Virus record (IMG/VR): IMGVR_UViG_3300044723_003732
Coordinates: 1 to 25,891 of that record
Strand: one strand, 5' to 3'
Length of the DNA: 25,891 nucleotides
DNA from: a virus
Taxonomy: Duplodnaviria; Caudoviricetes
Shown here: in pieces, positions 792-22,966 of the stretch
Position numbering within the stretch: the first letter of the stretch is position 1
Layout of the letters: every line of letters begins with the position of its first letter
Notes under the pieces: model-generated
Told to the model about the DNA's origin: nothing
What the model saw: only the letters and a program-made list of their open reading frames with translations
Databases searched by the model: none
Position numbers and translations under genes: made by a program

Positions 792-3700
792 TAAAATCCT
801 AACTCAATGTTTTGCGTAGTAGCAATATCTTCTTCAATTTGCCTTGATAATATATTAACCCATAAATGGTAAAAATCAGGATGTTCTTTCAATAAAACAT
901 CTTCTACGTATCTACGTAGATATTCTCTCTGAGCTATCATATCACCTGAACCTATTGTAACATTAGGTCTTATATTTCTCTGTCCCCAGTCTAGTACTTT
1001 ATCAAAGGCTTCTAAGTATTTTGCTAACCCTTGACCTGCATCAGAACCTGCTAATACAGCATTCTGTTTCCATGTTCTTAGTTCACGAACTTGTGATTCG
1101 TTGTCTATAGTTCCTGCTAGTCCCAAACTTTCCCTAAATCCTGGTAATGTTTCTATCAAATGTATCTCTATTTCTTTAAGTATTTGTCTTCTTACATAAT
1201 CTGATACACCAAAATAGTTAGCATCATTAAGTAACATTCTTCTATTACCCTCATAAATAAACCTACCTTTTGCATTCATAATCTCTGCTGCAACTTGGTC
1301 TGTAGTTAAAGAAACTCTATCTCCCTCTGTAAATGCTTTCCAATATGATGCAATATCAAACTCATCTAGTGGATTATCAGGATTATGATAGTAAGCTGTA
1401 TTAGGTGCGAACTCATAAACTTCTTTGTTTTTTGCCATATATGCTGAACCCTCTGCTGTATATGGAGTTCTTACTACTGTTTTAGATTTTCTCTGTAACA
1501 TAGCAAATGGTTCAAAACCAAATGTAGTAATAAACTCTTTTGTTGCTTCATAGGAATCACCTTTATTACTTCTAAGCATGTCATAATATAAATCTGTGAA
1601 TACTGAGAAACCAAACATAACAGCACCATCATCTGTATCAGGGAAGTCTCTAATATCCAATTTAAGTTTTTCTTGTATCTCATCTGTTAAAAACTCACTA
1701 GGTACTTCTTTATAATATCTGACTGTACCACCTGTAGGTGCAGCGAAAGCTAATGCAGCCTGTATCAATGTAACAAATGTTGCAGTTTTCTCTGCAGCTT
1801 TTACTGCTTCTCTTCTTTCTTGTGTAGTAGTAAATTTAGCTTGTCCTGCTAATACTCTTGCTTTTAATATATCTGAAGCAACGTTTGCAAATAATCTTCT
1901 ATACTGTGGGTCTGCATCATCACCAAGAGTTAATACTTTTTTATACCAAGTAGGCAATGCTGCTTCTATAGGACCTACATTTGCAGGTTCACCTAATGGA
2001 AATATTACTTTTTTAAGTGAAGCAAATCTCTGTGTATCAGGTAAATAAGATGCAGGTAATTGTACAACTGGACCAAAACCTGGAAGAACACTTTGTCCTA
2101 TCAAGTTAAGTCCTGATGTATAACCTACAAGATTAGCTCTGATACCTGAATCTTCATCTACAATATCATTACTTAATCCTTCATTAAATGGAAAGTTAAA
2201 TACTTCTTCACCTGTTACAGGGTCTGTTGTAAAGAATCCATTCTCTTGTGCTTTGTTTACTAAGAGTTCTGCTTTACGTAATTTACCTGGATTTGTTGCA
2301 ATAAGTCTTGACCATGTTCCTAAAACTTCTTTATAAACTTCAACGAATGGGAACATCAATCTAGTTGCATCTGCAAACTGTGAACGTTTATTTAAATCAT
2401 AAAGTAATCTTCTTGTTTCCTCTAATGCAAAACCTTTTGATATTTCATCTGCTCTACGTGTACCAATCTTAAATGCATCATCAACATCTGAGACTAATGA
2501 CTCTAATCTTTGTATATATTTTTTATCTAAATTATTTTTCTTAGCCTGTTTAATTAGATTATTTAATGCAGTCTCTGTAAGACTTGGTGCAAGTTTTTCC
2601 ATTTTATCAAAGTAAAACTGTCTAAATGCAGGAGACCTTGATAGTTTGTTTGTAGGTGTAGAACCAAATATTCTAAATATAGAAGATACAACTTCATCAT
2701 ATTTACTTAAAAGACTTGAGTCTACGTCTACTTTAGAAACTTTTACATACTCGGGTCTGTTAAAAGGTAAGTCTGAATTATCCCATTGCTTTAACTTTGA
2801 ACCTAGTACTTGCTTTGTTTTATTATATTCTGCTCTAAATTCTCTTGATATATTTTCTAATGATATGAATGTACCATTTACTTCACCACTACCATTAGCA
2901 ATAAGATTAAGAATCTCATCATCTCCTGTTTGTGTAATTCTAAATCTTGGAACAGCATCTGCATATTGTGTAGGTATTGGTTCACCTGCTTTTAATATTA
3001 TTTCCTGACCATCTACCACTACATACTTTTCGTATTTACCTCCTGCTTGTTTATGTAATCTAGCTTGTATAGATTCTAAATAAGCTCTAACATTTTCTTT
3101 TGATTCTGTAATTCTAGCTTTTTGTGCATAAGAAGAATCATCAGCTAACTCAACAAAATCATCTAACAATGGTTTTAAATCTCCACTATAAGCTGCATCT
3201 ACTAACTCATCTAATGTTGCATATCTACCTTTAGCATTTGTTATTGTAGAAGCTAGCTCTTTAGTAAGAACATCATTAGCAAGTAATACATTTTCCAATA
3301 CATAACCGTCTAAATATTTTTTATTACCTTTTGATACAGCAACAAATATGTTTGTTCTTTTTGGTGCAAGTCCTCCAATAGATACTGATTTACCTCTAGC
3401 CATAGCATTTTTAAAAGATACATCCATTAGAAATTCATTTCCTAATATATCTTCTAATCCTCTTGCTTTAACTCCTGGTATCTTTGCCAAAGCATTTTCT
3501 ACTTTACCTACATACTTACCTGCAGATGGTGTACCTAATACCCATGCAATATGTGATATAGGATGATTAAAAACGCTTGTCATATCAGCAGCCCACATTC
3601 TTGCCTGTTCTTCACCAACAACTCTTGATGTCCATGCTGCTCTAAGAAGTATGAATGGTTTCCATAAACCTTGCATATAGGTATCTGCTATCTGTGTCAA

Positions 3701-5689: not shown

Positions 5690-5698
5690 GTTAGCTCC

Positions 5699-6103
5699 CT
5701 ATGCACCGTAAGTTTTTTGTTGTTTATTTAACTCACTTTCCATCAAAGCTAGTATATCAACATCAGGATAGACACTATACAGACTTCTTAGTACTGCTAG
5801 TTTATCTACTGGTCTTTGTTGTTGAGCTACTACTGAATCTTCTATTGCTGATACATTTGGTCTCTGTGTTGGCTGTGATAATGGAGTAACTGATGCTCCA
5901 GTAGCCCTCACCCTGTCTATTGGTTCAACTTGAGAAGGTGGTACTTGTATTGGTTCTTCCTGTGCTACAGGAAAACTTCTAACTAGTTCCTGATTTCTTG
6001 CTCGTTGTAAATCTGCTCCACCACCAACTAAATCTGATGGACTTATCTTATCCTTACCTGGGTCATAATTTAATTTATCTTTACTACCTCGAGTCATTTT
6101 CAC
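5699..6103 (-). CDS. Hypothetical protein (P/Q-rich, post-portal)
   Basis: 134-aa ORF tightly packed in the structural operon. An AGAGGTG SD suggests the ATG at 6097 is an alternative start. Confidence 0.7.
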   Translation of the reverse strand: MKMTRGSKDKLNYDPGKDKISPSDLVGGGADLQRARNQELVRSFPVAQEEPIQVPPSQVEPIDRVRATGASVTPLSQPTQRPNVSAIEDSVVAQQQRPVDKLAVLRSLYSVYPDVDILALMESELNKQQKTYGA

Positions 6104-6272
6104 CTCTAATAATTAACAAATCTATTCTTATTCCTGGAAACTGTGCAATAGTTACAGCATTAAACATAATGCCATCTTCAAACTCTTCATCTTGAAACAA
6201 TACATTTTGTGCTACGTCAGGAAATTCTTGTAAAATTATATCTATAAATTTTTCGTTTACAAAGTCGTCCAT
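6084..6272 (-). CDS. Hypothetical acidic protein
   Basis: 62 aa. Start overlaps the portal stop (TAATG). Confidence 0.7.
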   Translation of the reverse strand: MDDFVNEKFIDIILQEFPDVAQNVLFQDEEFEDGIMFNAVTIAQFPGIRIDLLIIRGENDSR

Positions 6273-8017
6273 TACTGACCTGCAGCAATCTGTGCAAATA
6301 TATCTTGTACTGAAGAAGGTCCTTGTCCTGGAGCTACTTGTTGTTGAGCAATAGCGGCTGCTTGTTGTTGCTGTTGTTGTTCTACTTGCTCTGAGAAAAA
6401 GTTTTCTAAAATATCATCTATCTTATTAGGATTTCTGTATATTTCTGTGATAGCTGCCATTGCCTGCATATCTCCTCCTTGTGACCTAGCTAATAATGAT
6501 TCAAACATAACACGTTCTGCACGTTCTTTTGTAATTCTGTCATTAATCTTTGTTAAGTCTTGTAAGCCGTCCATTTCTTCCTGCATGGTTTGTCTATCGA
6601 TAATACCTGCTTGAAGTAATTGCAACCCTGTTATGATTTTTTGTGGCTCATCAAAACCTGCCATAGTTCCATAAACTCTTGTAGTTTTGTAATTCTTATT
6701 AATATCAGTGCCAGGAGTATAGTTTTCTGAAAAAGCAGCTCCTCTGATATAACCTGATAATGGTTTTCTTTTTTCTGAGAATAATACTTCATCAAGTTCT
6801 AATCTCTTGTAATCAACATCTTCTAATGCTTTTGATAATACTTGTTGATATTCTCTAACCATAAGAGAAACACCACTTTGAAGTTCTTCTAAACCTCTAC
6901 CTGTTACAAAAGAATTAGGAGATATTGCATCATCTTGTACAGGATATCCTGCTACAACTCTTAGATGTCTTTCTATTCTTCCTACTTGTTCAAATAATTG
7001 ATACGGTAAGTTGTTTACTGGTTTTACTACTTGTGAACCTGGAGTTAAATAGTTAACAGCAAATCTTCCTTTACGGTATTGACCTGACTCTATTTCACCA
7101 ACAACGTTAGTTTCTGTAAATACAGCGTCTTCCATAGCTATAACAGACATAATATTTATCTTTGCCATAGCTGCCATAAGTCCTATTGTTTGGTCAAACT
7201 GTCCTTGTAATTGGTCAAAGCTAAATCTTTTTGCTACTACAAATGCAGGACCTGATTGTAATGGGTTAGGAACAAAGTCTACAATTTTTCCTGACGCAGG
7301 ATGTACTATGTAAGTTCCCTCTTCGTTCATGTATTCGACTATATTGTCTCCATTATCATCTGAGTTTTCCCATGAACCATTTTCTACTCCAATATTGTTA
7401 TTGAGTTTTCTTATGTTTCCACTACCACTACTAGATTTATCTGCATTATTAAAGTAACTTTTAAGTTCAGGATACATTTCTATAAGTTCAGCAATAGGAA
7501 CTTTACGTATTGTAACTAATTCATCAGGTGTTTGGTTAGCACCATAATATCCAGGAAAACAATCATAAGGGTCTCTTAGTTCTGCTACAGGATATGAATT
7601 ACCTTCTGCGTCTTTTTTTGTCGTAATTATCCATACAGCAAAACCATAACCAGGTAACCATCTAGCTACTTGTGGTAACTGACCCTTAAGATTCTGCATT
7701 TGGTCAAATGAAGTTATTATTCTTTCAAGTTTATCTTTTTTTCTTTTAGACCTCTCTGAATCTCTTGGGTTTGTTAAATCTACTCTAAGGTTAGGTACAC
7801 GTCCTAGTTTCTGTGCAAGTCTATCTAAACCTGACATTAGTAAGTTTGGAGCAGGTAGTATGGATTCATCCATCATATCTAGTTGAGTTCCAAGTAAAGC
7901 TCTGATTCCATCAGCTCCACCATTCATAATTGCTCTAAACCTATGTCTATCAACTAACGCATTCTCATGCATATTTTTAAGATGGACACTTCTGTTTAAA
8001 ATATCTTCAACTAACAT
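6272..8017 (-). CDS. Portal protein (head-tail connector)
   Basis: 581 aa, immediately after the large terminase, with a GGAG SD and a Q-rich C-terminal tail as in P22/T7-type portals. Assigned mainly from position and size. Confidence 0.8.
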   Translation of the reverse strand: MLVEDILNRSVHLKNMHENALVDRHRFRAIMNGGADGIRALLGTQLDMMDESILPAPNLLMSGLDRLAQKLGRVPNLRVDLTNPRDSERSKRKKDKLERIITSFDQMQNLKGQLPQVARWLPGYGFAVWIITTKKDAEGNSYPVAELRDPYDCFPGYYGANQTPDELVTIRKVPIAELIEMYPELKSYFNNADKSSSGSGNIRKLNNNIGVENGSWENSDDNGDNIVEYMNEEGTYIVHPASGKIVDFVPNPLQSGPAFVVAKRFSFDQLQGQFDQTIGLMAAMAKINIMSVIAMEDAVFTETNVVGEIESGQYRKGRFAVNYLTPGSQVVKPVNNLPYQLFEQVGRIERHLRVVAGYPVQDDAISPNSFVTGRGLEELQSGVSLMVREYQQVLSKALEDVDYKRLELDEVLFSEKRKPLSGYIRGAAFSENYTPGTDINKNYKTTRVYGTMAGFDEPQKIITGLQLLQAGIIDRQTMQEEMDGLQDLTKINDRITKERAERVMFESLLARSQGGDMQAMAAITEIYRNPNKIDDILENFFSEQVEQQQQQQAAAIAQQQVAPGQGPSSVQDIFAQIAAGQ

Positions 8018-9916
8018 TTAACTCCAAGGGGCATCATTCCAAGATGCCATTTCTATTCCGCTATAACTCGGACTATATTCTACCATCATATCATCAAATC
8101 TCGCAGTTTGTAATCTTCTTATAACTTTCATTGGAAACCAAGATGCCATAACAATATCAGATTTGTAACCTTTACCTTTGCTTGCAAAGAAAGATAACTG
8201 TTTTTTATACATATCTGATTTTATTTTTGCTTCTACAGATTTATATGGAAGTATTATGTTTTGTTCTGCAAACAAAGAAGTCATTGATGTCACACCATAT
8301 CTTGTATCCCATTTGTTTTTTGCTTGAGTCTGATGTCCTTCATGTATAATTCCTTGAGTAGCACAATACTCTTTAAGCTCAGTATCTTGTCTAATTGCTT
8401 TTTGGAAAGCATTTTCTTCTATTACCCAGTGATAACAACCATGTATTTCTTTCCATTCTTTCATAATTCTTAATGCTTCTTTGATTCCTCCACCTTTGTT
8501 ATTTTCTATATCAACCATTTGTAGTCTTAATGGAGAACTATCATAGATAGCCCATAAGAATGCTGCTTGATAACCTGTAGCAGCAGGGTCTAGTCCTGCA
8601 ACTAAGTATGCAGATTCTTTTACTTCTCCAATATCTACTGTGTCATCAAAACATTTTGTTATAGTCTCAGGATTAAATATTGTTGTACCTACTGGGTTTG
8701 CTCTATTAAGATATACCATTTCAAATACATGCACACCACCTGTAGTTGCTGATGCTTCTTTTTGTGTATTTAACCATTTGTAATCTCTTTTGCCTTTCCA
8801 TAACATACAATCTATATGTTCATCTAAATCTTGCTCAGGTATTTCGCAATCATCTGAATGTGCTTGCTCTACAATATTGTCCCAAGCATTGTTCTCTAAT
8901 AAAGAATTATATAAATCGTCTGAATGCTGTCTTGAACCAATAACTACAACAGCAGTATGTGACTCTACACGAGATGACAAAGTTGTTGTCCACCATCTTT
9001 TAGTTGCAGCTCTACCTGATGGTTGTGCTGTAGAACCAAAATCTTCTATGTCATCTGCAATTATTAAGTCGCAGTCACGAGATAGAATCTTTCCACCCTT
9101 ACCTACAGCAACCATCGTTGGTGATTTTATACCAGTAACATTTCTTGTAGCTACTGAAAATGCTGTCTGTGACCAGTTTTTACCTGACCTACTCTTAGGT
9201 CTAAAGGTTTGTCCTGGTCCACAAAACTCTTCTATTAACTTATCGTTAGAATCTAAATGGTCTAGTACAGAACCGACTGCATTTTTTGCAATATCTTCGT
9301 TTCCACCAACCCACATAATTCTTACGTTAGGATTTCTACAAATCTGCCATATAGCAAAATGTATAAGTAGTTCTGTCTTTCCATGACGTGGTGGACTCAG
9401 TATCATTAAGTTGCCACCCTCAGCAATATTTTTTGCTATAGAATTTACCCACTTCTCTTGAAAGTCAGGTGTTTCATACTTTTGTCCTGTTTCTGTTTTA
9501 AAATATCTATCTCTGAATTGTTTAAAGTCTTCTAAAGATTTTATTGCTTCTTTAGGTACAGTCCAGTCTTCTCTTTTTGTTTCTAGTTCTTTATCTTCTA
9601 TAAAAGCTGCATACATTCTTGATACTTGTGCAGGTGAAATCTGATATAAGTCTGCTACTTCTCTAGCACTTAGTTCACCTTTTAACATTTCTAATGCATA
9701 ACCATCTTCTAAAAATTGGTCATAGAACTCACCTTTACGTGATGTAGCATTCTTTTTTTGTGGCTTAGGTACGCCTAAAGTTTTATCTCCATGTAATGCT
9801 CTTTGATTTTGTACATATCTTTTGTGTTCTTCAGAGCAGTATCTTCTTTGTCGTCCTTTTAGTATTGTTTTACATTTAGGATGCTGACAAATTAGATTTT
9901 TTTCAATATCTACCAC
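8018..9916 (-). CDS. terL: Terminase large subunit with N-terminal Zn-finger and HTH extension
   Basis: Walker A PPRHGKT, Walker B LIIADD, coupling motif IGSR, RNase H-like nuclease start GLDPA, VIEENAFQ and a terminal SDIVMA acidic motif. Confidence 0.93.
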   Translation of the reverse strand: MVDIEKNLICQHPKCKTILKGRQRRYCSEEHKRYVQNQRALHGDKTLGVPKPQKKNATSRKGEFYDQFLEDGYALEMLKGELSAREVADLYQISPAQVSRMYAAFIEDKELETKREDWTVPKEAIKSLEDFKQFRDRYFKTETGQKYETPDFQEKWVNSIAKNIAEGGNLMILSPPRHGKTELLIHFAIWQICRNPNVRIMWVGGNEDIAKNAVGSVLDHLDSNDKLIEEFCGPGQTFRPKSRSGKNWSQTAFSVATRNVTGIKSPTMVAVGKGGKILSRDCDLIIADDIEDFGSTAQPSGRAATKRWWTTTLSSRVESHTAVVVIGSRQHSDDLYNSLLENNAWDNIVEQAHSDDCEIPEQDLDEHIDCMLWKGKRDYKWLNTQKEASATTGGVHVFEMVYLNRANPVGTTIFNPETITKCFDDTVDIGEVKESAYLVAGLDPAATGYQAAFLWAIYDSSPLRLQMVDIENNKGGGIKEALRIMKEWKEIHGCYHWVIEENAFQKAIRQDTELKEYCATQGIIHEGHQTQAKNKWDTRYGVTSMTSLFAEQNIILPYKSVEAKIKSDMYKKQLSFFASKGKGYKSDIVMASWFPMKVIRRLQTARFDDMMVEYSPSYSGIEMASWNDAPWS

Positions 9917-10200
9917 TTTACTTCATTAGCCCACCACGCTGCTGACATCTTGCCTTTAGCTATGTTCTTAGCGTGTCTTTTTTTAAAAGATTTACGTCTA
10001 GCTTTTTCTTTAGCTGATTTAGGATTCTTACCTGCACCTCTAACACCTTGCTGACCAAATCTAATTAACTTCATTTGATGACCTTCTTGAGCCAAAACAA
10101 CGTGTGACTTAGTAGGATGCTTAGGTGTACGTTTAGGTTTATTAACACCTGACAATCCGTGTTTCTTTAATAATGTTTTTTTTCTATTAGCATGTGACAT
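9910..10200 (-). CDS. Small basic protein (LIRFGQQG...RRKSFKKRH...SAAWWA type)
   Basis: 96 aa, K/R-rich. Motif recalled from small proteins of aquatic phages (DUF5754-like, from memory). Confidence 0.75.
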   Translation of the reverse strand: MSHANRKKTLLKKHGLSGVNKPKRTPKHPTKSHVVLAQEGHQMKLIRFGQQGVRGAGKNPKSAKEKARRKSFKKRHAKNIAKGKMSAAWWANEVKW

Positions 10201-10280
10201 TATATTTTATCTTTCTTAATTAGTATCCATGCCCATGCATTAATTACAACAAAAGCAAAAAAAACTATAAATCCATCCAT
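10200..10280 (-). CDS. 26-aa membrane peptide MDGFIVFFAFVVINAWAWILIKKDKI
   Basis: Below the ORF-track cutoff. TAATG overlaps at both ends. One hydrophobic helix with a basic tail. Confidence 0.6.
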   Translation of the reverse strand: MDGFIVFFAFVVINAWAWILIKKDKI

Positions 10281-10414
10281 TAGCTCATCTTTGGTTTTCT
10301 TTTACCGTTTTGACGTAACTTTTTAAAATCAGCTCCTGTGATTTTGTCAAACGGTGGTGCAACACCTGCTATTTTTTTCTGTGCTGCAGAATACTGTCCG
10401 TTACCTTTTAGCAT
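10280..10414 (-). CDS. 44-aa basic protein (QKKIA...DKITGADFKKLR)
   Basis: TAATG overlaps at both ends, with AGGTAGG upstream. Confidence 0.7.
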   Translation of the reverse strand: MLKGNGQYSAAQKKIAGVAPPFDKITGADFKKLRQNGKRKPKMS

Positions 10415-10587
10415 TATTTACCTACCTTTTTCTGTGCGTTTACATGTGATTTAGAAAAACTAGAACCACGTTTCATTGAGTTTACCATATATTGAATATG
10501 TTTTTTTGTATGATGTTTAGAATGTTTTTTTAATGCAGTTTGTTGTCTTTTAGTTAACTTACTTGCATCAACTCCTTTTACTTTCAC
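10414..10587 (-). CDS. 57-aa His/Lys-rich protein (LTKRQQTALKKHSKHHTKKH)
   Basis: GTG start overlaps the previous TGA, with GAGG upstream. Fills the gap exactly. Confidence 0.75.
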   Translation of the reverse strand: MKVKGVDASKLTKRQQTALKKHSKHHTKKHIQYMVNSMKRGSSFSKSHVNAQKKVGK

Positions 10588-10781
10588 TTTTTGTTTTTCC
10601 TCTTAGTTGTAGCTCTTGATTTCTGTACAGCTTTCAAATCTATGTATCTACCTTCTTTATATGCTTTAGAAGTTCTTTTTATTTCTGCTGCAACTTTAGA
10701 TTTAGGATTCTTTTTATTTTTTAAATATTTAGCAGGTACGCCTTTTTCGTATTTGACTTTACGTCTACTTCTTTTTTGCAC
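10584..10781 (-). CDS. Small Lys-rich protein
   Basis: 65 aa, with a GAGG SD, overlapping its neighbours. Confidence 0.7.
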   Translation of the reverse strand: MQKRSRRKVKYEKGVPAKYLKNKKNPKSKVAAEIKRTSKAYKEGRYIDLKAVQKSRATTKRKNKK

Positions 10782-11049
10782 GAGACTTACCTCTTTTTTT
10801 CAAATCATTATCTTGAGAATGACCACCCCTAATAAAAGAGTTAACTCGACCCATAGCCCAAGCTGCCATAGAAGCTGACTTACTTCCTGAGCTAAGGTAC
10901 GCACCTTGTCCACGCCTATATACTGCCGCCAGTTGCCCATACGTATACTTACTATTCTTAGCTTTCTTTTGAAGCGTTGCTTTAGTTTTAGCATTAATAG
11001 GTTTTCTAGCAGGTTTTTTTCTTGAACTACTCTTCTTCTTTGGTGGCAT
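10765..11049 (-). CDS. Small basic protein (VYRRGQGAY..SGS...WAMGRVNSF, DUF5824-like from memory)
   Basis: 94 aa, with a GGAGAAGG SD and a histone-tail-like N-terminus MPPKKKSSSRKKPARK. Confidence 0.75.
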   Translation of the reverse strand: MPPKKKSSSRKKPARKPINAKTKATLQKKAKNSKYTYGQLAAVYRRGQGAYLSSGSKSASMAAWAMGRVNSFIRGGHSQDNDLKKRGKSRAKKK

Positions 11050-11230
11050 TTACCTTCTCCATATTAACGTTGTAATCATTTACAAATTTTTCTACCAAAG
11101 TATCTATCTTGCTAATATTTGGTTTTTTATTAGTAATAATACTACCACAAGCATCTGCTAGGTCCATTGACCATTCTTTTAAATCTTGTGGTGTAGAGAA
11201 TATATTTCTTTTCTTTTTAATTTTTGCCAC
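11027..11230 (-). CDS. Hypothetical protein
   Basis: 67 aa, GTG start with an AGGAGG SD. Confidence 0.7.
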   Translation of the reverse strand: MAKIKKKRNIFSTPQDLKEWSMDLADACGSIITNKKPNISKIDTLVEKFVNDYNVNMEKVNATKEEE

Positions 11231-11324
11231 GTTTCCTCCTGGCGTAATATGCTTTTACTTGTTTTAAAGTATAGCGTTTTCCACTAGGAGAGTAATAAAA
11301 TTTTCCACGCTTAGTAAACGGCAT
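11217..11324 (-). CDS. 35-aa basic protein MPFTKRGKFYYSPSGKRYTLKQVKAYYARRKRGKN
   Basis: Translated by hand. Fits between its neighbours. Confidence 0.65.
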   Translation of the reverse strand: MPFTKRGKFYYSPSGKRYTLKQVKAYYARRKRGKN

Positions 11325-11325
11325 G

Positions 11326-11388
11326 TTATTTTTTATAGCCTTTTTTAGACTTACTCTTCTTCTTCATTTTTTTTGTATGATACGCCAA
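11326..11388 (-). CDS. 20-aa Lys-rich peptide MAYHTKKMKKKSKSKKGYKK
   Basis: TTG start 6 nt after GGAG. Stop lies 1 nt before the next ATG. Confidence 0.5.
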   Translation of the reverse strand: MAYHTKKMKKKSKSKKGYKK

Positions 11389-11503
11389 TTTTTACTCCAA
11401 ACTTCTTATTGTACTCTATACAACCTAGATTAGCACAGTATCTGAATCCACCTCGTATCACAAAATCTTTTTTACAAGTTTTGCACTTGAGTATTTTCTT
11501 CAT
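11351..11503 (-). CDS. 50-aa Zn-ribbon protein (CKTC-x11-YCANLGC)
   Basis: Translated by hand. No SD, with TAAGAT 7 nt upstream of the ATG (leaderless-type). Confidence 0.65.
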   Translation of the reverse strand: MKKILKCKTCKKDFVIRGGFRYCANLGCIEYNKKFGVKIGVSYKKNEEEE

Positions 11504-11519
11504 TGTATTTATCTTACAG
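11504..11519 (-). promoter_or_regulatory. Putative -10 element (TAAGAT) for a leaderless late transcript
   Basis: TAnnnT hexamer at 11516-11511, 7 nt before ATG 11503 and just after a terminator. No clear -35. Confidence 0.4.
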
Positions 11520-11530
11520 TTTTATAAATG

Positions 11531-11555
11531 AAAAAGCCTCTATTGCTAGAGGCTT
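11531..11555 (-). terminator. Intrinsic terminator after the SET gene
   Basis: Minus strand AAGCCTCTA-GCAA-TAGAGGCTT ending in a T run. Confidence 0.75.
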
Positions 11556-11598
11556 AATCCGTACATTAAACATAAAGGAGGCTTCATGAATAAAGTTC

Positions 11599-11889
11599 TT
11601 ATATTGTATATAAAGAATACGTAAGTGTCAACTCTTCATCAGCTTTTATATTTTTTATTGTTTGTAAATACATTTCTTGTCCTACTTCTCGTAACTTACA
11701 GTTAGAGTCTTTTTTGTGATTTATAAATCCACCTAGAGGTGTTCTAATTAGTCCATGTAGGTAATCATCATGCTTTACATGACTAACTCCTATTGTTGTA
11801 TTTTTTTCTATATCTTGTAAGGCAAATAAACCAAGACCATCTATCTTAGATTCTTTTATAGTTAGATACTTAGGCAGTGGCTTGTACAT
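11599..11889 (-). CDS. Minimal SET-domain protein (putative lysine methyltransferase)
   Basis: SKIDGLGLFA (motif I), GGFINH..DSNC (motif III) and IKADEELTLTY (motif IV). Confidence 0.85.
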   Translation of the reverse strand: MYKPLPKYLTIKESKIDGLGLFALQDIEKNTTIGVSHVKHDDYLHGLIRTPLGGFINHKKDSNCKLREVGQEMYLQTIKNIKADEELTLTYSLYTI

Positions 11890-12415
11890 GTGGTTCTAAT
11901 ATATCAAGTGGTACTTCGAGCGTTTGCACAACACCCGTGGCTTTCATTGCGTCTACGCTTACGAGTAAAGAGCGTGAAAAAAAATTTTTATTTTGTGTTT
12001 CTACTATTCGTGGATTGTCTTGTAGCCAGTCAATAATAAACGGATTTAATTTTTGTGGATTCCAGTACAGTACGTCGCTCGTTGGGTAAATCCAATAGAA
12101 GAGATAGTCAGGGAATGTTTTCATCGCACATCCAATACCGTATTTTGTATCCCCATACACTATTTGTATTTCTAGTGCTACATTCCCCGTATCTCTGCTT
12201 TGAGTATCTGTTTTGACCTCAAAGTATTTTGTACCTAACTCATGGTTAACTACAAAAAAATCTGCACCTTGTTGTTGCTCCCACTCTTGTGCAGGTCGCA
12301 CAATATATATATCTTTACCTTCTGTAGTACGCCTGGAGCGGTAATAATTTCTTATGAGGTCTTCGCCTCGCTTGCCAATGTTGTAATCGTCTTTAAATTC
12401 GTGTATAGTTCCCAT
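11870..12415 (-). CDS. PD-(D/E)XK-family nuclease-like protein
   Basis: GKRGE...GADF...FEVKTD...TGNVALE pattern. Confidence 0.7.
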   Translation of the reverse strand: MGTIHEFKDDYNIGKRGEDLIRNYYRSRRTTEGKDIYIVRPAQEWEQQQGADFFVVNHELGTKYFEVKTDTQSRDTGNVALEIQIVYGDTKYGIGCAMKTFPDYLFYWIYPTSDVLYWNPQKLNPFIIDWLQDNPRIVETQNKNFFSRSLLVSVDAMKATGVVQTLEVPLDILEPHVQATA

Positions 12416-12452
12416 AATGTAATAAATAATACCCTACTTAAATTTATAAGTA

Positions 12453-12461
12453 TGTTATTAT
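12453..12461 (+). promoter_or_regulatory. Putative extended -10 promoter TGnTATTAT
   Basis: TG-T-TATTAT directly before the structured non-coding element. An inverted repeat TACTTA-N6-TAAGTA (12435-12452) abuts it. Confidence 0.45.
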
Positions 12462-12465
12462 AAAA

Positions 12466-12820
12466 ATCAACAAACACAATGTTGAGATGTGGTTACAGGT
12501 AAAGCGGATATCGGGCGTACGAAAGCTGCTTACTGACTCTTAAGTCAGGATAGGGATTACCTCAAAAAGCAGTACCCAAGGACCACGGAAAAACTTTGTA
12601 AGAGCGTTTTAGAGCTTTTTTTTATAACAAGCATAGATGCCCGCACGCTCACAAGAACACGAACAACACTCCATTAAAAAGAACAATAAATATAAACAAA
12701 ATAAACTACCATTTATTGCCAATATCTGTTAAGCTACTAGCAGGGCTAGTATGTCTCAACAGTGTATTAATTACCCCTAATTAATACGTAATCCCATAAG
12801 TAACCTGTAACTAGCCCTAA
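12466..12820 (+). ncRNA. Candidate large structured RNA of unknown class
   Basis: ORF-free, with several local and long-range helices whose mismatches are mostly G.U on the + strand (see findings). Confidence 0.5.
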
Positions 12821-13138
12821 GTTTTACCAAGAATTACCATTAATATTACTGGGGCTTACAGTACATATACACCCCGTACCTATGTTAAACCACGTGTACG
12901 CAACGTGACTATGTAACATCACCGTATACCATTATATATAACTAACTAGTACTGATATGCATACGTATGAGCTGTACCACACATATACGTAATAGACTAT
13001 ACTTCTCTTTCTAAAAACATCCCCCCGTCTATAAACATCACACACTATCCCCACAACTACACTACTCATTACATCAAGACTTAAGTACTCATACCAAATT
13101 AATCAGTCATACGCTCACCTAGTTCGCTAGCTCCCTCT

Positions 13139-13347
13139 TAATTTATATTCGTACTAATAGATATATAAGAATATATCTACCGTCTTTCAGTAATTCGTAG
13201 ATATAAATTATTATTCAGTCGTGCCGATTAGTCGAGCCTAATCGCTCTTTCCCGAAACGAGAGAGTACGCACTATTCATTGAATAATTTATATATGTAGT
13301 TAGAATTAAAACAAATACATACTTCATACAAGAGTACGAAGTATGTA
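13139..13347. repeat. Cluster of nested inverted repeats upstream of the first early gene
   Basis: TAATTTATAT 13139/ATATAAATTA 13201/TAATTTATAT 13284. TAGATATAT-AAGA-ATATATCTA 13158-13179. CGATTAG/CTAATCG 13225-13244. TACATACTTC/GAAGTATGTA 13316-13347. Confidence 0.8.
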
Positions 13348-13383
13348 CACAACGTACATACATAACAGAAAGGACTAGTCAAA

Positions 13384-13728
13384 ATGCCTAGTAACAAACT
13401 AATACCTAACGTAGAGTATCAAGCTCACCAAGTAGGTACAACAACTAAATTCCAAGACGGAATGTTAGTAACACGTAGAAGACAACTAGAAAAGGACAAT
13501 TTCAAAAGACGATACAATGTATCGTATGTTCTTGACGGTAAGTTCCACGACCTAGTGGATTGGGAAACTTGCTACAATTCAAGTACTCCCGACAAAATCA
13601 AGAACATGCTCTTGCAAGGTGTCGCTACAATCAAGGTATCTGACACGGGAAAAGTGTCAAGCTCGATTACAAAGAAACAACTCCAAGCTATCAACAAGAC
13701 TGCATTGGACGAACTTCTCAAGAAGTAA
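13384..13728 (+). CDS. Hypothetical protein, first gene of the early arm
   Basis: 114 aa, with an AGAAAGGA SD. Confidence 0.85.
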   Translation: MPSNKLIPNVEYQAHQVGTTTKFQDGMLVTRRRQLEKDNFKRRYNVSYVLDGKFHDLVDWETCYNSSTPDKIKNMLLQGVATIKVSDTGKVSSSITKKQLQAINKTALDELLKK

Positions 13729-13843
13729 TCGAGCAAGAGTTATACCACTCTACACTTTCAAGTGATACACATTACTTAGAAGGTGGATGTTCATACTGTA
13801 TTGATGATGAATACGTTTCATTACAATACGCAATCTAATAATT

Positions 13844-13879
13844 TAGCTAGTGGGTTTCGGCTCACTAGCTATTTTTTTT
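13844..13879 (+). terminator. Intrinsic terminator
   Basis: TAGCTAGTGGGT-TTCG-GCTCACTAGCTA followed by T8. Confidence 0.9.
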
Positions 13880-13889
13880 AAGCCTATAA

Positions 13890-14034
13890 ATCCCCACACG
13901 AGTACCACAATCACTTATGAATAACCACACGACCACACCATTTCTTACACACACACGCACACGGTTACCACACTCACTGTTGAAACCAAACCATAAAACC
14001 AATAACCATAAAATATTTATTTATAAATATTTTA
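13890..14034. repeat. CCACAC-rich tract followed by a perfect AT palindrome
   Basis: Several CCACAC/CCACAA copies and a (CA)n run, then TAAAATATTTAT-TT-ATAAATATTTTA (14009-14034). Confidence 0.75.
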
Positions 14035-14132
14035 ATATAGCAAGTCAATACGTGAAGCTAGCTGATTAATGTTGTTGGAAACATTTGCTTTGGCTTGCAG
14101 ATGTGAATAACGTACAAGAGAAAGGATAAGTC

Positions 14133-14363
14133 ATGTTAAACGAAATAGAAGTATGTGAGAGCTGTTACAGTTGCAATATCATTGTAGCTAAACAACCAAA
14201 CTCACAATATCCGAACGAGGATTATGTTCAATGTATGGATTGCGAGCATGTATCCAACTGGTCATTAATCAGATACGTAGAAAAAATGTGTACTGATTGT
14301 GGAAAAGATAGCGATTACAGAACAGCACACCAATACGATGAAGGGGACATTATTTATGAGTAA
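14133..14363 (+). CDS. Small Cys-rich protein
   Basis: AGAAAGGA SD and three CxxC pairs. Confidence 0.8.
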   Translation: MLNEIEVCESCYSCNIIVAKQPNSQYPNEDYVQCMDCEHVSNWSLIRYVEKMCTDCGKDSDYRTAHQYDEGDIIYE

Positions 14364-14802
14364 ACCAAAACGCACAAGTACTATCCCTCGTATGAAAGTT
14401 GCCGTAGACGTAGACTTCATACAATCGGATAGCAGAACTATACGTGCAAGTAAAACAATTACTCGTACAGATATTCCAAACCTATCGGGTATGAGAATAG
14501 AACACGTAGACATAGGTGCAAAAGAAGTACCATGCTGTTCGCTATGTGGTAAACACCTTAGTCGATACGGTATGTGTAGAGATTGCAAAGAGACTCGTAA
14601 CGTACAAGAGTTAGAAAAACGTAGAGCTTTATTGCAAGACGATGTATCTAACTATGTTAGAAATGGTAGCCATCGATACGTGAAAGGCTTCGACCATAAT
14701 ATTGAGAAAGGTTGTTGCCAATCACATGCAGAACTCTTTGCGAGTTACTGCCCATGTGGTATGGCGATACCTAGTGGATTACAAGATTGTGAGGTGTGTT
14801 AA
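14356..14802 (+). CDS. Cys-rich hypothetical protein
   Basis: Start revised to ATG 14356 (GAAGGGG SD). CxxC motifs. Confidence 0.75.
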   Translation: MSKPKRTSTIPRMKVAVDVDFIQSDSRTIRASKTITRTDIPNLSGMRIEHVDIGAKEVPCCSLCGKHLSRYGMCRDCKETRNVQELEKRRALLQDDVSNYVRNGSHRYVKGFDHNIEKGCCQSHAELFASYCPCGMAIPSGLQDCEVC

Positions 14803-14885
14803 TGCATGTATGTAATTATGAATTAACTTATTGGAACGAGTACAGATGTACAGGTTGTAATAGAAAAAGAAACGAAGAGACATGA
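14802..14885 (+). CDS. 27-aa peptide MHVCNYELTYWNEYRCTGCNRKRNEET
   Basis: GAGGTG SD. TAATG and ATGA overlaps at the two ends. HxC...CxxC pattern. Confidence 0.6.
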   Translation: MHVCNYELTYWNEYRCTGCNRKRNEET

Positions 14886-15097
14886 AGTTATACGATACGG
14901 ATTATGTGATAGTGGATAGCGAAACTTTAGAACCCATAGAGAGTTTAGATATTATCTATGCTGAAGATATGCTACAAGAAGAGTTAAAAAACAATCCTTT
15001 GAGCATGCATGAAAGAGCTATACCCATGACAAAGTTACCTAAAGAATTACAAGAGAGGTACTTAGAACACATTGAGAAAGTGAGGAAAAATGGATAA
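14882..15097 (+). CDS. Hypothetical acidic protein
   Basis: 71 aa, translationally coupled. Confidence 0.75.
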   Translation: MKLYDTDYVIVDSETLEPIESLDIIYAEDMLQEELKNNPLSMHERAIPMTKLPKELQERYLEHIEKVRKNG

Positions 15098-15167
15098 GTT
15101 ACACGATTATACAAAATGTGGTAATCATCAACTAGGTTGTGATTGCACTAATTGGGAGGAGGAATAA
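15090..15167 (+). CDS. 25-aa peptide MDKLHDYTKCGNHQLGCDCTNWEEE
   Basis: GAGG SD. Ends in the GAGGAGGAATAATG coupling junction. Confidence 0.6.
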   Translation: MDKLHDYTKCGNHQLGCDCTNWEEE

Positions 15168-15298
15168 TGCCAACTTATAAAATACTTGTCAGATTTGATG
15201 CTGAAGATTGGGATGACGCTGTTAGCGTTGTAGAAAATATGTATATAAAAGATTGGATATCAGAAATGGAGGAGGAAAAATGGATAAAGAAAAATTAG
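15167..15298 (+). CDS. 43-aa protein MPTYKILVRFDAEDWDDAVSVVE...
   Basis: GGAGGAGG SD and TAATG overlap. Confidence 0.7.
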   Translation: MPTYKILVRFDAEDWDDAVSVVENMYIKDWISEMEEEKWIKKN

Positions 15299-15423
15299 AG
15301 TACACGATATGGGACGTGATTGTAGAAGACCAACACGGTAAACTCTACAAGCTAGACTCCCCGTGGATAAATGAGAATTGGAAATACGATGAGCAATCAG
15401 AGACACTATGGGACGATTTCTAA
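15280..15423 (+). CDS. 47-aa acidic protein MDKEKLEYTIWDVIVEDQHG...
   Basis: GGAGGAGG SD. Stop overlaps the next ATG. Confidence 0.7.
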   Translation: MDKEKLEYTIWDVIVEDQHGKLYKLDSPWINENWKYDEQSETLWDDF

Positions 15424-15767
15424 TGAGTAAGTACACAGTCAAAGATGTGGTAAAAGAATTACAACATCGAGGATATGACGAGCAAGAGTGCCAAGCTATT
15501 TACGATGTTTTCTTAGAACACTACAGTACACCTGAAAAAAATACATATTACTTTCAGGACTTCATGGCTAGTGTTCATTTCGTAAGTGAAGATGAATACA
15601 ACTACACGATATTCAACGACTTCGTAGAGGTATGGGGTATTGATGACAAGCTCGTACCATACCTAGATGAAGAAGCAATAGTATCTGATTACTCAATGGA
15701 TTGGCATTGGGAAAACGTAGTGTTGAAAGACAGGCGAATAGGTATCGTAATGTGGAGAAGTTTTTGA
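15423..15767 (+). CDS. Acidic protein, ArdA-like antirestriction candidate
   Basis: Start revised to 15423 (TAATG). C-terminal IDDKLVPYLDEEAIVSDYSMD resembles the ArdA IP..L..YIDYEA..RD pattern. Confidence 0.5.
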   Translation: MSKYTVKDVVKELQHRGYDEQECQAIYDVFLEHYSTPEKNTYYFQDFMASVHFVSEDEYNYTIFNDFVEVWGIDDKLVPYLDEEAIVSDYSMDWHWENVVLKDRRIGIVMWRSF

Positions 15768-16530
15768 TTGCTTCAGTACGTGAGAAGCAACTGATAAGCT
15801 GATAGCCAAAGCAATTAGCTATCTACTAGTATGCGTTTGTTTACTGCCCTGTTTCCAAACGACTGAACGTAGGTAGCTTGTAGCACATAGGACAATGGGT
15901 GTTATTACACGACTTAAATGCGTGGCATTGAAATAATATGCAAATCGCTCTCTGATAACATCATTGATGAGTGGTTATCGCCATCTGATAACATCATTAG
16001 ATGTCTTGTGTGTTACAAGCTATCTACACTGTACTAGCAATAGTTCAGTACCATAGCTCAGGTGTTTACTCTCCGTTCATGCCTGAGCTGTAGGTAGCTT
16101 GAAGATAACGGCTGAACAGTCTTAGTTTAAGTACGGACGCAGACATTTATCGTTTAGAGATAAACGGACTATGCATAGGTAAGCCACATGTTTTGCTGTC
16201 GTGGAGTAAGTAAGCTAGTTGTCTTCAAGCTATCTATGTAAGTACGCAAGTCAGGAACACTTAGGTGGAAAAGTGATATAAACAAAGTTAATAACTAATT
16301 CCTGTTTCACTCGCTTACACTGATAGCAATGTATTAGACAATAAAAGAAATATAAATATCTATACGACTGAGTTGTCTAATGACATCATCAGAAGCTACT
16401 TACGAGAAAACCTTTTTCTCTCACAAGAGAGAACTAGGATAACCGTTGTAGGTAGCTTGATAGACGTGGGGTGTGTACGTAGCTAATGACAGTCCCTTTC
16501 TGTTTCCTTGCGTCTATCAAGTTATCTATA
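15768..16530 (+). ncRNA. Structured non-coding cassette: array of long stems with a conserved base motif
   Basis: GTAGGTAGCTTG at 15869, 16090 and 16448, each pairing with CAAG(C/T)TATCTA at 16016, 16226 and 16518. Stems are 21-26 bp with G.U pairs. GNRA tetraloops at 16037 and 16157. Confidence 0.75.
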
Positions 16531-16545
16531 TACGAGGAGGTGAAC

Positions 16546-16734
16546 ATGGGTAACAAACTCAAAGAAGTACACGGTGCAGGTAATTTAGAATTAGCTCACC
16601 GTATCTACAGAGACTTTGCTCTCTTTATCAAAGCTGATACCACTATCGCTGATAGTGTCATGGGCAGAGGTACAAGGAACAGAGCATTGCTCAAAGCAAT
16701 CAAGGATAGGCTCAATGAACTCGATAGCATATAA
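16546..16734 (+). CDS. Hypothetical protein
   Basis: Start revised to ATG 16546 (GAGGAGGTG SD). Confidence 0.8.
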   Translation: MGNKLKEVHGAGNLELAHRIYRDFALFIKADTTIADSVMGRGTRNRALLKAIKDRLNELDSI

Positions 16735-16882
16735 ATGTGAGATTTGTCAAAGTAGTGATTCCCTGTGGGGTTACTTCATTGGCGATGGCAAATGCGAGAT
16801 GTGTTGGGAACTATTCAAACAAGTAGGAAGTTGGCGTAACGTTACACGTCAAAGAAAGGATAAACATGTGGGTACAAACTAA
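16715..16882 (+). CDS. Small Zn-finger protein (CEIC...CEMC)
   Basis: Start revised to ATG 16715 (AAGGATAGG upstream). Confidence 0.65.
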   Translation: MNSIAYKCEICQSSDSLWGYFIGDGKCEMCWELFKQVGSWRNVTRQRKDKHVGTN

Positions 16883-17078
16883 TTACGATAAGAGAGCTAA
16901 CGCTTGGATATCTTCTTTACCGAAGACTCCAATGGATAAAGTGTTTCTCAATATCTCAGGTGAGGGCAACGATTGTGTCAACCTTGTGTTCAAGGACACA
17001 ATAGAGTATGCAACATTTGTTGAAAGAGTACGTGAAGTACTTGATGAGATTAACACAGAGTTCAAGGTAAAGATATGA
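16866..17078 (+). CDS. Hypothetical protein
   Basis: AGAAAGGA SD, 70 aa. Confidence 0.8.
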   Translation: MWVQTNYDKRANAWISSLPKTPMDKVFLNISGEGNDCVNLVFKDTIEYATFVERVREVLDEINTEFKVKI

Positions 17079-17320
17079 GTACAGTATACGAATACATAGT
17101 TAGAGACAGCTCTGTGGACGTAAGAACTCATGTCATACACTCTGAGGAACAACTTACAAAAAATGAGATATCAGAACTCATAAGTGAATCTGCACTCAAA
17201 GAGGGTGTTGAGGAACTAATGAGAAGTAATCCTTATCTCATAACAATGCAATACAGAGGTACAGAATACGGTGATGATTGTCAAGTGCAATGCTACGGTC
17301 CCGTACTAGAGGAGGAATAA
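17075..17320 (+). CDS. Hypothetical acidic protein
   Basis: ATGA overlap. Ends EEE at a coupling junction. Confidence 0.8.
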   Translation: MSTVYEYIVRDSSVDVRTHVIHSEEQLTKNEISELISESALKEGVEELMRSNPYLITMQYRGTEYGDDCQVQCYGPVLEEE

Positions 17321-17538
17321 TGTATAGAGTAAAAATGGAAGTCTATTTAGACATAGACGGAACTAATGCTGAAGTAGTAGATACAGTGCGTGACTTCGAG
17401 ATGAGAAATCTAGTAGAGTTTGATTTCCTTGATATCTTATTTGGTGAGCCAATGGTAAGACCATTGAGAGAAACAGAAGATGAGGAATACAAACCATACG
17501 AGTTACTCACAGAGGAGTGCGATGTTTTCAACAACTAG
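17320..17538 (+). CDS. Hypothetical acidic protein
   Basis: Start revised to 17320 (GAGGAGGAATAATG). Confidence 0.8.
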   Translation: MYRVKMEVYLDIDGTNAEVVDTVRDFEMRNLVEFDFLDILFGEPMVRPLRETEDEEYKPYELLTEECDVFNN

Positions 17539-17815
17539 TTTTGATACTGTTATCAGATACACATGGGGTTACTCTCTGCATTTACACAATGCAGGATTTC
17601 ACATGGAAGAGTGTGAGCAATGTAACAACAGTATCCGTAACAGAGATGACATGGTGTACATGTTTGTAAACGAAGATGTTGACTCGGGAGAGTGCGAGAT
17701 TGAATATGACTTTGGTTTTTTCTGTTCAACAGAATGCTTAGTCAATTCAATACGACTGCATGAAATATCAGAGCCACCATTTAATTATCAAGATTCCGTA
17801 TGGGAGGAGGAGTAA
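17522..17815 (+). CDS. Hypothetical protein with a treble-clef-like CxxC...FCSxxC motif
   Basis: Start revised to 17522 (GAGGAG SD). CEQC...FCSTEC. Confidence 0.75.
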   Translation: MFSTTSFDTVIRYTWGYSLHLHNAGFHMEECEQCNNSIRNRDDMVYMFVNEDVDSGECEIEYDFGFFCSTECLVNSIRLHEISEPPFNYQDSVWEEE

Positions 17816-22168: not shown

Positions 22169-22966
22169 ATGTCTTATGAGGACAGTCTAAAAAAATTACT
22201 TAAACCTTTTCCAAAGGAGTATGTAAAAGATGCACCCAAGGGAAAGTTTGGAAAGTATGTTTCTCACAGTCGTTACGTAGAAAGATTACGTGATAGTGGT
22301 ATACCCTACTCATGGACTTGTGAACCAATCTATGGAACACACAATGGTGAGAAAAGAATCGTTGGTGCGAAAGGCACTATCAAATTAGGAACAGATACCT
22401 ACGATGGCATAGGAGATGTTGACACATTCAAGTTAGATAATAAAAACATAAACGATGGGTCTTTGTTAAAAGACGCTGAATCAGACGCATTCAAAAGAGC
22501 ATGCATGAGATTTGGACTCGGTGTTGAGTTGTGGTCAGGAGATGTAACAGAGGAAGAGTTTATATCACCTACCACGCAAGGTAACACCACAGTCACAGAG
22601 AAGCAGAGCGAAGTCGTAGTTGAAGAGTCAACAGCTCCTTCCACACCAACTACGACTAGCTCTGAATCAAACGTATTGTTTTGTCCAAAGCCGTGTTATT
22701 CACCAGTAAAGATATACATGCCTGAAGATAAAAAGAATCCACGTTCTGCAGATTTTAGATGTACTGCAGGTGGTAAATGTTTGAACGGTGAACAAAAAGG
22801 AAGTATGACTTATTCTAAGTCTTGGTATAAAGATGCAAAGAATTTACCGCCAGGATTTCAAGAAGCATACGATAACTTAACAATAGTTGCACTAAAACAA
22901 AAAGGTATTGAAGTACCTGAAGCAAAGAGTTTAGATGACATCAAGGAAGGAGAAGCACCATTTTAG
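22169..22966 (+). CDS. Rad52/Sak-family single-strand annealing protein
   Basis: LLKPF...YV....YVERL...KDAESDAFKRACMRFGLGVELW, and a GGAAGGAG SD. Confidence 0.85.
   Translation: MSYEDSLKKLLKPFPKEYVKDAPKGKFGKYVSHSRYVERLRDSGIPYSWTCEPIYGTHNGEKRIVGAKGTIKLGTDTYDGIGDVDTFKLDNKNINDGSLLKDAESDAFKRACMRFGLGVELWSGDVTEEEFISPTTQGNTTVTEKQSEVVVEESTAPSTPTTTSSESNVLFCPKPCYSPVKIYMPEDKKNPRSADFRCTAGGKCLNGEQKGSMTYSKSWYKDAKNLPPGFQEAYDNLTIVALKQKGIEVPEAKSLDDIKEGEAPF

Follow-up and report, generated by a model that had tools for sequence, protein, structure and literature searches.

The window, meaning the whole 25,891-nt stretch of viral DNA that was analysed, encodes a terminase, a metallophosphoesterase, a Rad52-like annealing protein and a series of small unknown genes on the + strand, and within this series of early genes lies an array of structured RNA (Table 1). 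The original prediction described a non-coding gap of 760 nt; the gap is real, but it spans 778 nt (15768-16545) and ends at the Shine-Dalgarno sequence and ATG (16534-16548) of the next early gene, which belongs to a homologous ORF cluster found in 21 loci. The longest stop-free stretch of the gap in any frame is 63 codons, and the 82-aa ORF listed from 16486 is an upstream extension of the gene at 16546. The sequence GTAGGTAGCTTG is present exactly at 15869, 16090 and 16448, as had been reported, and at two or fewer mismatches it has 8 matches against 1.9 expected, a number reached in 0 of 100 shuffles. The three helices of 26, 21 and 25 bp form as claimed, with G.U/U.G on the + strand as their sole non-Watson-Crick pairs (4, 4 and 6 in helices 1, 2 and 3), and the half-sites at 15817 and 16393/4 are likewise real. 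Folding of both strands, as originally suggested, gave -266.5 kcal/mol (z -9.6) for the + strand and -205.4 kcal/mol (z -5.25) for the - strand, each relative to 20 shuffles.

Table 1. Features of the RNA array and the putative recombination gene of the window
Feature	Coordinates	Strand	Evidence
Leader hairpins ending in an orphan 3' half-arm (15817-15826)	15769..15826	+	10 homologues
Spacer cargo: hairpin with AGUA/GAA internal loop and invariant loop CCCUGU	15827..15868	+	34 sequences
Unit 1: 26-bp helix 15869-15894/16002-16027 around a 107-nt cargo	15869..16027	+	6 cargo homologues
Spacer cargo: a pair of hairpins, with a pyrimidine-rich loop in the second	16028..16089	+	z -4.8; 8 homologues
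Unit 2: 20-21 bp helix (continuing past a bulge) around a multi-hairpin cargo	16090..16237	+	11 sequences
Perfect palindrome of 10 nt in unit-2 cargo, a predicted dimer contact between molecules	16169..16178	+	family comparison
Spacer cargo: H-type pseudoknot	16253..16311	+	10 sequences; 15 homologues, also inside stems
Short-stem unit: hairpin cargo, degenerate outer helix UAGC 16324-27/GCUA 16395-98	16321..16403	+	5 homologues; z -2.3
Spacer hairpin	16405..16447	+	2 homologues; MFE fold
Unit 3: 25-bp helix 16447-16471/16506-16530 around a 34-nt cargo	16448..16529	+	z -7.2; 6 homologues
Shine-Dalgarno sequence and ATG of the early gene that follows, 4 nt past unit 3	16534..16548	+	sequence
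Rad52-like single-strand annealing protein	22169..22966	+	phrog_3290 E 1e-9; Pfam Rad52_Rad22 slightly below cut-off

The exact paired-arm pattern occurs in 69 viral loci, and the 5' arm in at least about 240 viral and at least about 330 metagenome stretches (estimates, among the matches listed). A set of 439 loci including the window contains 397 that hold a unit, giving 403 distinct units of 65-193 nt with spacers of 1-212 nt. Cultured phages yielded only chance matches of up to 38 nt, and a collection of species genomes yielded one contig with the 5' arm, from a gammaproteobacterial MAG; that MAG was set aside as a host candidate, its 3-kb contig carrying a phage ORF family. One terminase is common to 33 of 40 long cassette-bearing contigs at 51-90%, but some near-complete contigs are without it, and therefore more than one lineage carries the cassette; the carriers appear to be uncultured phages, mostly of one family. 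Among 25 loci chosen by terminase, with 5.8-10 kb of upstream DNA, 16 contain a unit, so the cassette is an accessory, though a common one. Divergent units escape the pattern search of 14 whole records (one is present in G055), which makes absences there soft. No Rfam family matched at gathering score over any unit in the window, 47 loci and part of the related locus L459, whereas such a match would have refuted the original prediction; a sub-threshold match of L170 to a miRNA-like Rfam hairpin was dismissed as a generic long stem. The literature search found no description of the element, and its exact motifs matched only papers unrelated by title. The stem and cargo motifs are absent from the readable tables of Fremin 2023, to which the comparison was confined and whose head rows carry no sequences; the same kind of data was mined there, and the stem or single cargos may be listed in it unnamed.

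Over stem positions 2-20 of the 403 units there are 6457 Watson-Crick, 1159 G.U, 17 A.C and 24 other pairs, counts that are not independent of relatedness and come from units whose filters demanded pairing. Each stem half was therefore examined with units anchored on the other half. Outer-anchored units (n=230) have G.U at position 15 in 168 cases and U.G at position 20 in 205, with almost no A.C, and inner-anchored matches have the paired outer consensus in about 87-93 of 113, the remainder being chance coding matches. About 25 listed inner-anchored matches without an outer arm were considered as a second RNA family using the inner stem alone, and were rejected as chance, mostly coding. The inner 8 positions of 177 distinct stems comprise 1416 cells with 231 two-sided changes, 139 one-sided changes and 10 broken pairs; the arms thus keep pairing in homologues despite sequence change, as the original prediction had proposed from the copies within one genome. 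The strand on which G.U pairs occur is the coding strand of neighbouring gene clusters (59/59, 52/52 and 51/51 ORFs). The constant stem acts as RNA, and it covaries. The helix begins sharply at position 1 and is unbroken for 20-24 bp in 332 of the 403 units; in a structure-first scan positions 6-9 were the most invariant, with C9-G in 234 of 234 stems, while positions 10-12 have compensated variants and position 8 has a few G.G variants. Loci L462, L492, L518 and L152 have stem variants that combine the G.G mismatch at position 8 with a different inner helix.

The 466 distinct segments collected (346 inside and 120 between stems) form 161 families, of which 68 have a single member (Chao1 ~227). 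All nine window segments tested have homologues, 2-15 each. Covariation was tested in three window families with structures drawn from the alignments, and all three beat 500 shuffles on covariation score as well as all slid controls, in tests that relatedness inflates. In the CCCUGU hairpin (34 sequences) two-sided changes are present at 6 of 7 inner pairs, and its score was reached in 0 of 500 shuffles; in unit 2 (11 sequences) 14 of 39 pairs are two-sided, 8 of 16 within the cargo, with 0 of 500 shuffles reaching the score; in the pseudoknot (10 sequences), formed by pairing of 16253-57 with 16299-303 and of 16272-76 plus 16281-83 with 16304-11, 7 of 16 pairs change on both sides and 99.4% are paired. 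These three cargo families have covarying folds of their own, and with the covarying stem they bear out the description of a polycistronic cassette at the RNA level, with a constant stem and variable structured cargo. Stem changes among the eight homologues of 16028-16089 were judged by eye. The unit 1 cargo alone folds weakly (z -1.7), and its reading as a box C/D RNA was rejected because UGAUGA is lost in homologues. The outer helix of the short-stem unit is a full 9 bp in the homologue L021. The AGUA/GAA internal loop of the 15827-15868 hairpin is presumably loop-E-like; across the cargos the loop-E motif is not enriched (4 vs 3.0), and GNRA/UUCG hairpins occur in 31 of 161 families versus 15.7 +/- 3.8. 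Taken alone, representatives of the cargo families have weak folds on average (mean z -0.84 sense and -0.77 antisense, with 32 of 161 below -2), and the claim of structure therefore does not extend to every family.

A palindrome of at least 10 nt is present in 10 of 10 members of the unit-2 cargo family, in 6 different sequences, and about five other families have similar switching of palindrome sequence. Loops of OLE and GOLLD that switch between palindromes are taken as evidence of cross-chain pairing in 10.1101/2024.12.08.627333, and homodimers of the unit-2 cargo are predicted on this signature. Palindromes overall are modestly enriched (43 vs 34 +/- 4.8 at 8 nt or longer; 8 vs 2.8, maximum 9, at 12 nt or longer), so it is the switching within families on which dimerization is proposed. 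In the largest cargo family, made up of the L027:2481 region and 11 further units, a covarying stem of 5 bp closes a 7-nt loop with CAU at its centre, which looks like the methionine anticodon loop. Anticodon-loop mimicry as a class was considered and rejected, since it is not enriched (5 of 161 vs 2.3, maximum 7).

The stretches between the stems, on which the original prediction was silent, are also conserved RNA modules and draw on the cargo families found in the loops. Sixteen of the 47 families that have a spacer member also occur inside stems, among them the CCCUGU hairpin (5 units); spacers are cargo too. Of 23 spacer copies of the CCCUGU module, 22 lie flush against both arms; where the module precedes a unit, a 3' half-arm stands immediately before it in 48 of 52 copies. 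The 5' arm of unit 1 and the window half-arm 15817-15826 form a 10-bp helix (z -3.6). Where no upstream unit was detected, the half-arm is without a contiguous upstream partner in 26 of 27 cases (about four of which may be bulged or short units), and such orphan half-arms keep 9-10 nt, as at 15817, with CAA in only 2 of 26. A half-arm without an upstream partner implies that the swapped closing helix is preserved in its own right, which argues that the 3' half-arm and the next 5' arm pair at some stage, most simply after cutting of the long helix.

Units are shuffled among relatives, a point raised in the original prediction: pairs with both flanks 80% alike hold unrelated cargo in 43 of 58 cases, the flanks of unit 1 are found in L044 around a cargo unrelated to it, G002 and G003 (both close relatives) have slots in common with the window but different contents, and 75 of 76 multi-member families occur in at least two contexts. 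In letter comparisons whose pairs are not independent, non-consensus letters at stem positions 13-21 go with the cargo (3' position 13: 94/224 vs 7/97 with the same flank), whereas the letter at 3' position 1 goes with the flank (62/78 vs 2/159); crossovers therefore fall in positions 2-12. Thus, cargos are exchanged between fixed genomic slots by crossovers in the invariant outer 12 bp, which mark a crossover zone in addition to the role first ascribed to them, and this use alone could explain their constancy. The Rad52-like annealing protein, with relatives in 25 of 40 cassette-bearing contigs (some covering only part of the protein), is a plausible driver of the exchange, given what is established about phage recombinases.

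Exchange and accessory occurrence (16 of 25 terminase-selected loci) would also be expected of a selfish or recombining element at the DNA level, such as a Correia-like MITE or an attC-like single-stranded DNA hairpin, in which the RNA fold is incidental; the units have terminal inverted repeats with TA near both ends, and G-T is tolerated in single-stranded DNA also. Correia elements of Neisseria have ~26-bp terminal inverted repeats and an RNA stem cut by RNase III, but they are chromosomal MITEs with a TA duplication and related interiors, neither of which is seen in the array. The one clear type of empty site (L051, L291) has 8 other letters instead of a unit and no target-site (TA) duplication, in a comparison of limited power as empty sites are few; no inverted cargo was found, the lone minus-strand match being one palindromic unit seen twice; the interiors comprise 161 unrelated families with tertiary-type RNA features (the pseudoknot and the excess of GNRA/UUCG hairpins); and the units are found solely in the early region and invariably in the sense of the genes. 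The DNA-element reading is disfavoured and very improbable.

A hint of transcription comes from a relative, L459. In the metatranscriptome run X3, this locus is covered in 30 of 30 bins at a depth of 0.3-13.5 away from the array, and one 1948-nt contig lies over the array itself (8448-10376, 9 differences) at a depth of 273.6, versus 10.5 for the next listed contig. The array contig is thus about 25 times deeper than the flanks, in unstranded contig depth from one run in which DNA may be present; genes cannot be ranked by contig depth, one contig need not represent one transcript, and two promoter-like sites and a 102-aa ORF also fall within the deep contig. The depth fits an abundant transcript of the L459 array, and we infer that the window copy is transcribed as well. 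Runs X1 (probably DNA) and X2 matched only flanking coding pieces at a depth of 2-5. Sigma-70-like promoters lie immediately upstream of the L459 array, whereas no promoter-like or terminator-like site was found in 15768-16545 of the window; a dedicated promoter was rejected as a general feature, a strict sigma-70 pattern within 900 nt upstream being present in just 2 of 104 loci. Between a sigma-70-like promoter and the first unit of L459 (9700-10150, minus strand) lie about 450 nt of additional non-coding, strongly folded sequence on the high-depth RNA contig, with no Rfam match. Early cassettes of the same locus (3678-17547, minus strand) are preceded by nine promoter-like motifs that are nearly identical (TTGACA/TTGCAT, 17 nt, TAGAAT), an arrangement similar in spirit to the PeSL cassettes described below.

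In the mechanism proposed, the constant 20-24 bp RNA helix frames interchangeable folded modules inside and between stems, and recombination within its constant outer arms lets phages exchange them. Each helix would be cut by a double-strand ribonuclease of the host, likely RNase III, to yield the modules as small RNAs with clamped ends, after which each 3' half-arm may re-pair with the 5' arm that follows and so close the spacer modules. Among cassette-bearing contigs RNase III and dsRBD were found in 0 of 40 each, and reverse transcriptase (PF00078) in 0 of 40 and in 0 of 22 that are at least 90% complete; any enzyme would therefore be the host's. The unbroken 20-24 bp of most units match the 22-bp RNase III substrate described in PMC3867540. 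In terms of the boxes as defined in PMC5141509, positions 1-3 of the proximal box (CWUW/WAWG) are kept in 234, 223 and 211 of 234 stems, and an AG distal box lies at the appropriate spacing. The helix length, these three positions and the box spacing appear to fit a class 1 RNase III, for which the predicted register is a cut after stem position 14 and another just before the CAAG of the 3' arm (in unit 1, 15882/83 and 16015/16), the predicted 3' cut coinciding with the border of the constant and variable stem. Cutting of the stems by host RNase III, with release of protein-binding small RNAs, is judged probable by a modest measure.

Two determinants of the E. coli enzyme are poorly represented. 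Position 4 of the proximal box is W in only 15 of 234 stems and G-C/C-G in 218, and the distal box has A-U in 220 of 234 but the preferred U.G (G.U) in only 49, with G-C in 152. The best fit to the E. coli consensus WNAGWGNNCWUNNN^NAWGNNCWCUNW is 12 of 16, no higher than chance allows (P 0.19 vs 5000 permuted helices), although E. coli rules may not hold for the host. G-C at position 4 makes E. coli RNase III cleave 7- to 14-fold less and does not lower binding, as reported in PMC1540722 and PMC3867540, and this change from cleavage to binding is what would be expected if the helices were never cut, serving either as folding clamps that insulate modules in one stable RNA or as cleavage-resistant docks that soak up host RNase III. 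The single contig over the whole L459 array is also compatible with an uncut RNA, though a contig is no proof of a single transcript. A clamp, however, requires neither a fixed length of 20-24 bp nor a fixed sequence, and for the orphan half-arms that are kept, stable pairing requires that the next 5' arm be freed from its own longer helix, the alternative being transient pairing during transcription. Helices that stay uncut are regarded as unlikely, though deserving of consideration.

The size of the retained half-arms (9-10 nt, CAA in 2 of 26) and the invariance of positions 6-9 point to a 9-bp element and not to the 12-bp half expected from a cut by RNase III; the constancy of the outer arms can be explained by recombination alone. 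An improbable alternative is that another nuclease or a phage protein reads a 9-bp outer helix, for example a Mini-III-type enzyme at AGCU (positions 7-10) or AGGU/AUCU (positions 3-6), whose cut would release hairpins with a stem of at least 13 bp. It would account for C9-G in all 234 stems and for the short-stem units and orphan arms that keep exactly the 9-bp part, and WSSW is present at positions 7-10 on both strands in 217 of 234 stems, fitting the Mini-III consensus, although a four-letter motif carries little information. The host appears to be actinobacterial, and to our knowledge Mini-III is absent from most Actinomycetota. The arrays have no universal conserved protein neighbour, the commonest real cluster being found in 59 of 148 loci and absent near the window array, which speaks against this alternative. 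AGGU/AUCU is named as a potential Mini-III site in PMC5141509.

Once released by RNase III, the modules would likely act on host proteins as decoys or aptamers, a role suggested by their compact tertiary folds, invariant loop motifs and location in a hypervariable early region. In its widest form, a shared, recombining library of at least 161 (Chao1 ~227) independently folding aptamer or decoy RNAs, pseudoknots and self-dimerising RNAs among them, carried in a universal helix that a host ribonuclease opens to free loops and spacers alike, and disabling host proteins or defences, the proposal is tentative and somewhat doubtful. Control of the early genes themselves would be the function if the stems were T7-like signals for processing or stabilising mRNA and the modules cis controls or antisense guides: the arrays lie in the sense of early genes, in 180 of 397 loci a Shine-Dalgarno sequence and start codon lie no more than 60 nt past the last unit, and some loops are pyrimidine-rich, like anti-Shine-Dalgarno seeds. 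Yet cargo varies freely ahead of the same gene, and against phage genes (272 start regions and coding DNA of 10 related genomes, whole or in part, and the window) there was no antisense excess, with 11-mers in 12 of 161 families versus 12.2 shuffled and 10-mers in 50 versus 40.9 +/- 4.5. Such a function for early genes is quite improbable.

Comparison with known systems indicates where the array stands. RNase III sites of T7 lie between protein genes and have small loops. The T7 R0.3-R1.3 hairpins, as described in PMC3867540, PMC5141509 and PMC1540722, resemble the array in their ~22-bp helices in a phage early transcript, in the lack of a phage-encoded nuclease, and in a proximal-box-like CUU/AAG and a distal-box-like AG at the right spacing. 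Unlike them, the array stems stand in rows, enclose conserved modules of 20-150 nt from 161 families that are exchanged, and miss the two E. coli determinants, cleavage here being predicted. The PeSL cassettes of T4-like phages (Arbiol et al. 2010) share with the array a short repeat, a hypervariable early region and modular shuffling by recombination, but consist of a promoter and a terminator and shuffle protein genes (PMC2839356), whereas the array has complementary arms around non-coding RNA and no promoter or U-tail. Constant repeats that alternate with variable segments, presumably processed from one transcript, are common to the array and to CRISPR/TIGR arrays. In CRISPR/TIGR the repeats are direct, the segments are captured target sequence and an effector is linked. 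The original statement that the array is not CRISPR-like stands, since its repeats alternate in orientation and pair over 20 bp, its segments of 20-150 nt belong to folded families that recur, and it has neither a linked effector nor a universal neighbour; the CRISPR/TIGR array periods used were those of 10.64898/2026.10.21.760802. The array differs from retron and other reverse transcriptase-linked non-coding RNA arrays in the absence of PF00078 from the 40 contigs, and from phage tRNA clusters in that no tRNA genes were found in the window or in 41 loci. Phage RNA decoys, such as the pseudo-ToxI repeats of phiTE and the Racr anti-CRISPR RNAs, are small mimics directed against host proteins. 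Each of these mimics one known host RNA, whereas the array cargos are of more than 100 kinds and match no known RNA. ROOL, GOLLD and OLE are likewise phage-associated structured RNAs with palindrome-switching loops, but they are single large RNAs with Rfam models (10.1101/2024.12.08.627333), whereas the array consists of small modules in a common scaffold with no Rfam match.

The array is thus a real, widespread and uncatalogued RNA cassette system, with a stem that resembles a T7-type processing hairpin and shuffling that resembles that of PeSLs, and as an exchangeable RNA library it fits none of the families tested. Accessory functions of phages are usually pictured as small proteins; here more than 160 uncatalogued RNA families occupy a standard exchangeable frame, and the library, if truly one, would be the RNA counterpart of the small hypervariable early proteins of phages. 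If the modules are released and act on the host, they would amount to a naturally occurring set of aptamers directed at an abundant marine host, probably an actinobacterium, in which every module leads to a target in that host, and the frame would offer a ready design for making several stable small RNAs from a single transcript.

A marine actinobacterial host is inferred for these phages from sequence relationships. The nearest cultured-phage relatives of the window terminase are those of Streptomyces podophages, at ~26% identity, and the holin-like gene of the window has a 90% identical copy in an 'Actinobacteria bacterium' MAG as well as a further homologue in a gammaproteobacterial MAG. 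WhiB was found in 1 of 40 cassette-bearing contigs, which has the stem and the pseudoknot family in common with the window, and in 0 of 5 records. Elsewhere in the window, a non-coding stretch of ~900 nt between divergent gene blocks (12466-13383), with several hairpins and palindromes, is possibly an origin or genome-end region. On the minus strand, a 418-aa very acidic ORF with a poly-proline run at its start lies at the contig end (24609-25865), with no family above cut-off; a cluster of very small lysine/arginine-rich ORFs ahead of the terminase (9910-11230) may encode nucleic-acid-binding proteins; and 11599-11889 encodes a small SET-domain protein (Pfam E 4e-11), here in a phage. In the record G028 (C1:5034-6867), the terminase gene appears as two adjoining pieces.
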